Positions 5,972 to 7,556 of a stretch of 64,000 nucleotides of DNA are shown here, one piece after another. Source of the DNA: an uncultured delta proteobacterium (GTDB lineage: Bacteria; Myxococcota_A; Polyangia; Palsa-1104); contig CAWAWS010000015.1 of the NCBI GenBank assembly GCA_963785725.1, forward strand, positions 32,001-96,000, read 5' to 3'. Below the pieces are notes generated by a model that had not been told where the DNA came from, searched no databases, and worked only from the letters and a program-made list of their open reading frames with translations. The translations under genes and the position numbers were made by a program. Position 1 is the stretch's first letter, and each line of letters opens with the position of its first letter.

Positions 5972-7556
5972 TCAGGGGCAGCCGGTCTGCTGCTTCTTGT
6001 CCCAGCCTGGCGGCACGTTGAACGAGACCGAGCCCTTGCTCCAGCGGTCGAAGTTGGAGTCGGGCGTCGCGAAGACCCCGTCGTGACCCAGCTGGCCGCC
6101 GATCAGATGGTTGATCGGCTGCGCCGTCGAATGGCCCGGCGTCGTGTCGTTGTAGTCGCGGAAGTAGTTCTGCATCGTGTTGGCGACGGTCTGGCGGTCG
6201 CCGCTGCTGTCGCGCCCGGGATCGGTCGCGTTGAGCGTCTTGCCCATGCTGTTGAGCACGTTCTGAACGTCGCCGTCGTGATTGTTCATGCTCGTCTGAA
6301 TCGCGTCCGGCGTCGGATTGGGCGTGTCCTTGATGCCGGGATCGTTCTTCATCGCGTTGCCGAGATCCTGCAGCCGCTTCGAGGTCTCCGAATACGAGTT
6401 GGCGTGCTGCTGATCCTGCAAGTGATACGGGTTTTGCATCTCGATCGGGTGCGGCACCGACGTCGGATCGTTGGGCGGATTGGCGGCCGCGAAGCCCGGC
6501 GTCACGCCGTAAACACCCGAGCCGATGCCGTGGCTGGTGATGTCGATCTTGCCGCCCGGCCGCGAATATTCCGAGCCGCGCCCGTTCAGTCCCGGCGGCG
6601 CGTAGTGCGTGATGGTCGCCTTGCCCGTCGAGATCGGCTTGGTCTCGCCCGCATCGCCAGCCTTGTGTGGCTTCTGATTGGGATAGACGGTCGAAGGATA
6701 GGGACCGCCGTAAGGTGCGTCGCCGAACTCCTTGGTGACGGTGACCGAGATCTTGTTGCCGTCGACGCTGTTGACGGTGCCTTCGTAGACCTCGCCGTCT
6801 TCGTCGGTCCACTCGATTCTGGTCGCCCTTGACGAACGCGTTGTGTACCCACGCGCCGAGCGTGCCGACGAAGTAGGAGTGCGTGCCCTCGACCTCGAAG
6901 TTGTAGACCTCGGCGCGGGCCTCCACCGCTTGCACGGCGCCGACGCGCAGCTCGTCACCGTCGGCGTCGAGCAGCGGCTCGTCGGGCGCGAGCGCGTCGG
7001 CGCGCGTCCAGGCGCGATCGGCGGTCCAATAGAGGTGACCCGGCGTCGAGCGAACGACGTCGGCGCTGCCGTCGCTGCGCACGACGCTGACGGCGACGAG
7101 CGGCATGTCCGGCGTCACGAACAGCGCCGTCACCGGCGCGAGCGCCACGCGGCCCGTCTGCTCGTTACGCGAGAGCACGCGGTCGCCGCGCCGCACCTGC
7201 TCGATGGGCTCGGGACCGGATTCGGTCCACACCAGCGTGCCGGCGACGAAGCAGTGCTGGCCCGGAATCATGCACGAGCCGCCGGGGCAGCTGTCGCCGC
7301 TCGGCGTCCCATCGTTGGACGCCACTTGCGTGTCGGCGCACTCGGCGGGCGGGTCGCTGCCGTCGAGCTTGGCGCTGGCGACGGCCATCTTGCACTTCAC
7401 CTTCGTGCCGAACGCCTTGAAGCCGATGATGCAGGAGATGCCGACGAGCACGAGCGCCGTGATGTACTCGACGGCCGCGCTGCCGGAGCGGTGCGACCTG
7501 CGAACGGACCCGTGCCAGACGACAGTCATGTCGGACCCTGCCTGAGCAAGCGACAT
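5972..7556 (-). CDS. Flp/type IVb pilin - Hint autoprocessing domain - putative toxin (SH3/Tudor-like plus ART-like) fusion; one frameshift at ~6821
   Basis: RSG|SAAVEY plus hydrophobic helix; Hint from CFVAGT (7253) to VYNFEVEGTHSYFVG...WVHN (6840); removing one base at 6821-6822 joins it to the 5972 ORF (KGDRIEW...). Alternative start at 7529. Confidence 0.8.

Follow-up and report, generated by a model that had tools for sequence, protein, structure and literature searches.

Flp-type pilin–Hint–tail proteins of Polyangia, a candidate polymorphic toxin family with a Tad-pilin trafficking domain

Introduction

The export route is the basis on which polymorphic toxins are classed, and no pilin appears among the trafficking domains in the surveys searched: the first 300,000 of the 357,715 characters of PMC3482391 do not contain 'pilin', 'Flp' or 'pilus', and main-text passages of 10.1101/2021.10.19.465003 and PMC13483458 contain neither 'pilin' nor 'Flp'. 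These negatives cover main texts, and the supplements of these surveys might list pilin architectures. The Hint or bacterial intein-like (BIL) domain of such toxins is treated as the expected release step in the accessible parts of PMC9086364 and PMC7738311. Tad-like pili, for their part, kill on contact in myxobacteria; the accessible part of PMC12075869 leaves open the effectors of the Myxococcus Kil apparatus and does not contain the words 'Hint', 'intein' or 'polymorphic'. Flp pilins are named among the domains fused to ARC toxins in PMC12605009 (Fig. 5A), the legend of which lists a Pendulispora albinea protein; from the accessible portion of that paper we infer which accession carries the Flp.

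The gene described here lies in a 64,000-nucleotide stretch of DNA (the window) and encodes in one chain an Flp-type pilin, a Hint domain and a tail. Read from its sequence, the product would be a polymorphic toxin delivered by the Tad pilus and released by the Hint domain at the target, a reading to which we give a probability of about 0.62. The initial annotation of the window knew of no characterised toxin delivered this way. This stands in so far as full-text literature searches covering few subscription papers found no description of pilin–Hint toxins, but it has to be qualified by the Flp–ARC fusions named in the accessible text of PMC12605009. The pilin–Hint proteins make up a large polymorphic toxin family, apparently not described before, with a Tad pilin as trafficking domain.

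Results

Architecture of the fusion gene

The fusion gene and its immediate neighbours are arranged in the window as follows.

7482..7529, minus strand: basic prepilin-type leader with Gly at its end, 16 residues counted from the likely start Met (sequence)
7362..7481, minus strand: probable Flp/Tad-type pilin helix, with SAAVEY, a hydrophobic segment and then an amphipathic part with a conserved Cys (profile and sequence)
7254..7361, minus strand: flexible linker with three of the four presumably paired cysteines of the N-terminal module (Cys columns)
6840..7253, minus strand: PT-HINT (bacterial intein-like) domain, from Cys1 to His-Asn, with an internal Thr-x-x-His (PF07591, 2LWY)
6817..6822, minus strand: one-base frameshift, assembly error (spanning short-read contig, intact P0089 and P0093)
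5972..6839, minus strand: variable tail of about 288 residues, presumed effector, with its sole Cys as the penultimate residue (sequence)
5326..5949, plus strand: 3' end of an ABC-permease gene, convergent to the fusion gene (FtsX, E 5e-12)
7640..8635, minus strand: chitinase gene upstream, on the same strand, in pieces from assembly errors (9BUF match)

All the prepilin features of the protein, that is, a short basic leader, Gly at −1, SAAVEY with Glu at +5 and Tyr at +6, and a hydrophobic helix, are provided by one minus-strand frame, as the initial annotation had read them. The same frame runs on through the cysteine-bearing linker and a complete Hint domain, from CFVAGT at 7253 to VHN at 6840, which matches PT-HINT (PF07591) above the cut-off with an E value of 1.3e-20. 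The tail does follow the Hint domain, in a shifted frame with its stop codon at 5974–5972, but comprises 288 residues and not about 285. A gene start at 7556, initially assumed, had to be moved: 7529 is likelier, and the public proteins P0089, P0090, P0091 and P0093 all begin at the Met encoded there. The pilin–Hint–tail architecture is not due to chance, because six copies of it occur in the same genome. The upstream chitinase matches the exochitinase 9BUF (E 4e-22) and is listed here as genomic context only.

The split of the gene over two ORFs, also pointed out initially, does correspond to a one-base shift in the assembly, directly after the Hint domain, but this shift is an assembly error. 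P0089, an in-frame public protein of 518 residues, is identical to the window gene in both halves, and P0093 is an intact public allele, 97% identical to the window protein. A short-read contig of run X1 spans 5965–7721 without the frameshift, and X1 contigs over the neighbouring genes are also devoid of similar one-base shifts. A relation between run X1 and the sample from which the window came is possible, which favours an error over a strain difference. As readings of the split gene, a programmed frameshift and a pseudogene were both ruled out by the spanning contig without the shift. That the gene is a frameshifted pseudogene in the source strain itself, as the shift in the assembly might suggest, is very improbable given the in-frame protein on record and the unshifted contigs, both the spanning one and those over neighbours with the same type of error.

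Between positions 5300 and 9900 of the window, a cluster of one-base assembly errors also breaks the ABC permease, the chitinase (at 8096 and 8110, by comparison with short-read contigs) and a luciferase-like oxidoreductase.

Pilin character of the N-terminus

Two profile matches had been anticipated for the window protein; PT-HINT was obtained above its cut-off, whereas the Pfam model Flp_Fap gave no match to the N-terminus of the window copy. This model also misses the stand-alone Flp of the same genome, and its matches are weak family-wide (6 of 85 proteins at E ≤ 0.001, all under the cut-off); paralogue L002 reached 28.4 and 32.9 bits in two scans, the cut-off being 32.2. By direct comparison, the N-terminus of the window protein is 39% identical over 54 residues to the stand-alone Flp of a relative (E 1.4e-5). 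A profile made of the six paralogue N-termini and one small tad-locus pilin retrieved three PDB matches at E ≤ 5, all of them pilins, and the best two were the Tad pilins 8U1K (E 0.0023) and 8U2B (E 0.0091), aligned in register from mature residue 1. The motif, the identity to a stand-alone Flp and the in-register paralogue profile make it likely that the window N-terminus is a pilin, and cleavage after the leader Gly by a prepilin peptidase is predicted from the Flp rule. In the 77 parsed motifs (of 89 family members), Glu +5 is found in 68 and the Tyr in 57. Glu +5 serves filament assembly, and a plain membrane anchor would therefore not need this residue to be conserved.

The Hint domain and the cysteine pattern

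The Hint profile of the paralogues matches the BIL structure 2LWY with an E value of 4.6e-30. Cys1, the internal Thr-x-x-His and the terminal His-Asn are invariant columns in the six paralogues, and no homing endonuclease is present. A canonical splicing intein was considered and rejected, as the position after HN is highly variable and seldom occupied by Cys, Ser or Thr. Self-cleavage of the Hint domain in pilin–Hint proteins is predicted by analogy with the BIL literature cited in the accessible part of PMC9086364.

The N-terminal module of P0089 contains cysteines at residues 46, 64, 81 and 86, in columns conserved in the paralogues, and the only tail Cys of the window protein is residue 517 of 518. 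Cysteine positions were counted in 82 family members; seven others, with a short tail or a Hint end that could not be parsed, were left out. Of the 82, 51 have a Cys no more than eight residues after HN, 16 have one among their five C-terminal residues, 3 combine the two and 12 show neither. The near-HN and C-terminal positions are nearly exclusive (Fisher p 4e-7, kinship ignored), on a background of 2.2% per five residues. All 71 single-Hint members have an even number of linker cysteines and a Hint interior without Cys, and their tail Cys count is odd in 58 and even in 13. The simplest reading of these counts suggests that the single odd tail Cys is disulfide-bonded to Cys1 of the Hint domain, and we infer from the same counts that the linker cysteines pair among themselves.

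As a control, a Cys within eight residues after HN was found in 49 of 57 non-pilin Hint toxins (L008–L081). A post-HN Cys is general to PT-HINT toxins and therefore uninformative on the pilus; these 49 sequences suggest a common disulfide latch across PT-HINT toxins. Among proteins without a near Cys, the Cys had moved to the C-terminus in 16 of 28 pilin members versus 1 of 8 controls. No description of a Hint-toxin disulfide was found in full-text searches covering few subscription papers.

Six paralogues and the Tad genes of the genome

The genome assembly (8.9 Mb, 47 contigs, 88% complete) contains six pilin–Hint genes, which are its only strong matches to the Hint profile built from them. 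Their Hint domains are 39–72% identical, and none of the 15 pairs of tails aligns at E ≤ 0.01. The tail of L004 matches the papain-fold toxin family PF15644 (E 2.8e-5); the other five gave no informative Pfam match. By eye, the L002 tail appears papain-like and those of L003 and L005 ART-like, and the L005 tail weakly matches a Scabin-like tail (E 0.0057). At L005:7330-7400, the frame of this paralogue, on contig C7, runs into a convergent gene, and an adjacent frame ends in Cys-Gly-stop, which fits the terminal-Cys rule. A VgrG-like OB-domain gene lies two genes from the L005 copy.

No immunity gene was found 3' of the six copies. Five of them face a convergent gene and the sixth precedes an FHA-sigma54 regulator. 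No same-strand coding segment follows the window copy, where the convergent ABC-permease gene leaves no room for an immunity gene.

A genome without a Tad system, which the initial annotation had listed as contrary evidence, is not what was found. A tad cluster on contig C15 encodes CpaB, two CpaF-type ATPases, TadB/C, TadE/G and small pilins, and a secretin and an A24 peptidase are encoded together on contig C4, apart from this cluster. The Tad/Kil-like set includes ATPases with FHA, and the genome has three other secretins. One paralogue is placed 9.5 kb from cpaB and the window copy about 170 kb from the tad cluster.

Two further ORFs at the tad locus resemble the fusions at their N-termini. 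L006:7209-10787 (minus strand), at the end of the cluster, is an ORF of 1193 residues that starts in the pilin-like manner of the fusions (its match to the N-terminal profile of the family has an E value of 2.9e-7) and has no Hint domain. It carries long Val-Thr-Gly-Pro and Gly-rich repeats, has no Pfam or NCBIfam match and, judged by its sequence, is possibly a pilus-borne adhesin. L001:13156-13395 (minus strand) is a small pilin-like ORF with four cysteines spaced much like those of the fusion N-terminus, and may be the carrier module in stand-alone form.

Directly 5' of two of the six fusion genes (window 7640-8635; L003:8393-10901) lie chitinase genes on the same strand. Both GH19 genes of the genome are among them; the genome is chitinase-rich, with 16 GH18 and 2 GH19 matches. 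This adjacency, noticed after the fact, is a hint of fungal targets.

The family in relatives

Pilin plus Hint was flagged in 93 of the top-ranking 150 representatives; inspection by eye removed four of these and left 89. Their 85 tails of at least 40 residues, together with the six from the window genome, give 91 tails that fall into 56 clusters, 42 of them singletons. Variability of the region after HN, predicted in the initial annotation, is thus borne out among homologues and paralogues alike (no similar pair in 15), and a single conserved non-toxic tail, named there as contrary evidence, was not encountered. A Pfam scan (E ≤ 0.001) of 85 proteins, namely 83 representatives and two other relatives, placed toxin-type domains in 28 and other domains in 4, with none in the tail of 53. 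The toxin types comprise ARTs of several kinds, HNH nucleases, barnase-like RNases, glutamine deamidases, DXD glycosyltransferases and metallopeptidases. A direct swap between shared flanks can be seen between L004 and P0005/P0006, which share residues after HN and are weakly alike at the C-terminal end; the domain in between is papain-like in L004 and an ART in P0005/P0006. The pilin–Hint proteins are almost certainly a polymorphic toxin family.

Close homologues of the window protein are labelled Polyangia, and the named carriers are Polyangiaceae, Kofleriaceae, Sandaracinus, Myxococcales MAGs and the cultured Pendulispora albinea, P. rubella and P. brunnea. The P. albinea protein P0143 is encoded in genome G797, where ten pilin–Hint genes and at least five pilin–tail genes without Hint occur. 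No pilin–Hint fusion was found in 14 genomes of the same family, 9 of which gave other matches only; scoring seven candidates per genome in a sample of 401 genomes of the class brought up full fusions in at least three other genomes. The distribution of the family is patchy.

Several variant arrangements were observed. P0100, P0102, P0130, P0138 and P0204 carry two or three tandem Hint domains, some with a toxin-like domain after each, and from their sequences would be multi-cargo forms. L299–L304 and L298, in G797 and G854, are pilin–tail fusions without Hint, two of them with ADP-ribosyl cyclase domains and one followed by Imm74. In a Myxococcota MAG, L022:822-2279 (plus strand) joins a type II/IVa pseudopilin-like N-terminus (G-FTLVE) to a Hint domain with almost no tail, and sits among other pseudopilin-like genes. 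In genomes of the same order, L087, L090–L093, L096 and L104 show a short lipoprotein-like signal, a Hint domain and then domains that do not look like toxins. A viral scan gave Hint matches, and the one locus looked at (L164, 1 of 79) was Rhs-type.

The tail of the window copy

The tail of the window protein is 52% identical to those of its orthologues P0090 and P0091. Pfam, NCBIfam and PHROGs gave no match to it, a PDB sequence search returned 0 matches and Atlas none that was usable. A homologue search found none among proteins of 154–494 residues and only three full-length orthologues among those of 495–2000 residues, and two metagenome scans found no relatives. The best probability by hhalign against the other family tails was 5.8%. 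AlphaFold2 models of the tail reached pLDDT values of 40 and 48, too low to exclude any fold; with such a low-pLDDT model, Foldseek gave no informative fold match and VIA a best Z of 6.0, to a helical bundle only.

These results bear on the possibility that the family is toxic and the tail of this particular copy a non-toxic passenger, such as a pilus-displayed adhesin or a surface enzyme. The lack of a toxin family, of a solved relative and of a fold match for the low-pLDDT model, the lack of an immunity gene next to the window copy and the fact that only one of the six tails of the genome (L004) has a toxin Pfam match would all agree with such a passenger. Nevertheless, the orthologue tails retain His, Tyr, Asp and Gly-rich motifs at 52–54% overall identity, which is enzyme-like, and an intact Hint domain implies release and not display, so a non-toxic tail is considered quite improbable. 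By eye, the motif order resembles that of H-Y-type ADP-ribosyltransferases, an impression left unconfirmed by the hhalign comparison with the other family tails.

Immunity genes and linkage to tad loci

Twelve ORFs downstream of fusions in relatives were scanned. RNase-type tails were followed by barstar in four cases, ARC-type tails by Imm74 in two and a deaminase-like tail by Imm6 in one; the other five ORFs had no match. In G404, DUF6714 and DUF4265 genes follow the two fusion copies. The matched immunity genes suggest that competition among kin is indicated at least as much as killing of prey.

Co-occurrence of homologues with tad loci, proposed as a check in the initial annotation, was supported: cpaB is present in all 12 other carrier genomes tested, compared with 66 of 139 high-quality genomes of the class. 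The 12 include G403, where the contig stops short of the pilin end, which was deduced from close homologues. This is modest, supporting evidence, because cpaB is common in the class and the carriers are partly kin. In G404 one fusion gene closes a tad operon, next to the ATPase gene, and in G000, G022 and G788 fusions lie within 15 kb of cpaB.

Most copies of the family are orphans far from tad genes. This would fit a different export of the same toxins, in which the pilin helix is an inner-membrane anchor, the Hint domain frees the tail in the periplasm, and the tail leaves by type II secretion, vesicles, outer-membrane exchange or lysis. The three other secretins of the genome, the members without Glu +5 and the bulk of a passenger made of a folded Hint domain and a tail of up to several hundred residues could be taken in the same sense. 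Such an anchor is nonetheless unlikely, since Gly −1, Glu +5 and Tyr +6 are kept in very diverged members, one copy closes a tad operon and cpaB accompanies the fusion in every other carrier tested.

At the level of the family, none of the three contrary findings listed in the initial annotation (an N-terminus foreign to Flp profiles or unprocessed, one conserved non-toxic tail throughout, a genome without Tad) was obtained.

Discussion

The initial proposal that the pilin N-terminus is the trafficking domain and that a Tad pilus would carry a cleavable effector agrees with the architecture, the variable tails, the toxin domains and the Tad genes, but the tail of the window copy itself matches no toxin family. 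Pilins have an N-in/C-out topology. If delivery by the Tad pilus is correct, the leader and helix would insert in this orientation and, by the rules of T4 filaments, the Hint domain and tail would fold in the periplasm. The A24 Tad prepilin peptidase would cut after the leader Gly, Glu +5 would let the matured helix join the Tad filament as a minor subunit, and the fusion would leave the cell with the filament by way of the secretin. The tail would be severed from the Hint domain by Asn cyclisation, and a disulfide between Cys1 and the tail Cys, placed just after HN or, in the window copy, at the extreme C-terminus, would block the N-side cleavage and tether the cut tail until a reducing compartment is reached. 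The least supported steps are the crossing of the target envelope by the tail and the target of the window copy's tail. Periplasmic folding could explain why a producer can do without immunity to tails of its own that act in the cytoplasm. Kin may be the targets of copies that have immunity genes, and non-kin or eukaryotic microbes those of copies that lack them.

A wider picture can be offered tentatively, and we hold it with less assurance than pilus delivery of the single gene: the Tad pili of Polyangia would be a toxin-delivery route of their own, polymerising a library of pilin–toxins whose Cys1 latches open in the reducing cytoplasm, directed against kin, where immunity genes are present, and against prey and eukaryotic soil microbes, where they are not.

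A Tad pilin as trafficking domain would add an export route to those by which polymorphic toxins are classed, and the pilin–Hint genes would encode the cargo of a contact-killing pilus within the pilin gene. Because members with matched immunity genes are present in Pendulispora species that have been cultured, the idea is directly testable. Dozens of unassigned tails in the family are candidates for new toxin domains, and the Cys rule is a possible explanation for how Hint-type toxins avoid premature release.

Comparison with known systems

The closest likeness is to the PT-HINT polymorphic toxins (MafB, CdiA-BIL, Rhs-Hint, UmbC), which in the accessible part of PMC3482391 share the order of trafficking domain, Hint domain and variable C-terminal toxin. 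On the same partial source, both have the toxin families Tox-ART, GH-E, SHH, WHH, barnase, papain-like and ARC in common, as well as, in relatives with pilin fusions, a cognate immunity gene downstream. Unlike these systems, the pilin family has an Flp pilin as its trafficking domain, no repeat stalk and genes scattered singly, and the six copies of the window genome have no immunity genes.

The Flp–ARC fusions of PMC12605009 have a counterpart in G797, with pilin–ARC fusions and Imm74, both with and without Hint. In the accessible text of that paper, they are a passing mention with no Hint domain, family analysis, Tad link or export test.

The Kil apparatus of Myxococcus (KilP, the KilK/KilO adapters and the KilLMN tips), as far as described in the accessible part of PMC12075869, is by its general gene layout the same type of machine as that of the window genome, where the ATPases bear FHA, tip genes are TadE/G-like and secretin and peptidase form a cluster of their own. 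Flp-type minor pilins functionalise the pilus in Kil as they would in the pilin family, whereas the Kil tips are TadE/G-like trimers and the effector of the pilin family is covalently fused to an Flp-like pilin. Finally, Vibrio TcpB–TcpF and the type II pseudopili, also treated in that part of PMC12075869, provide a T4 filament that exports a protein cargo through a secretin. There the TcpF cargo is not part of the minor pilin but a second protein that binds it, whereas in the pilin–Hint proteins carrier and cargo form one chain that would be separable by an autoprotease.
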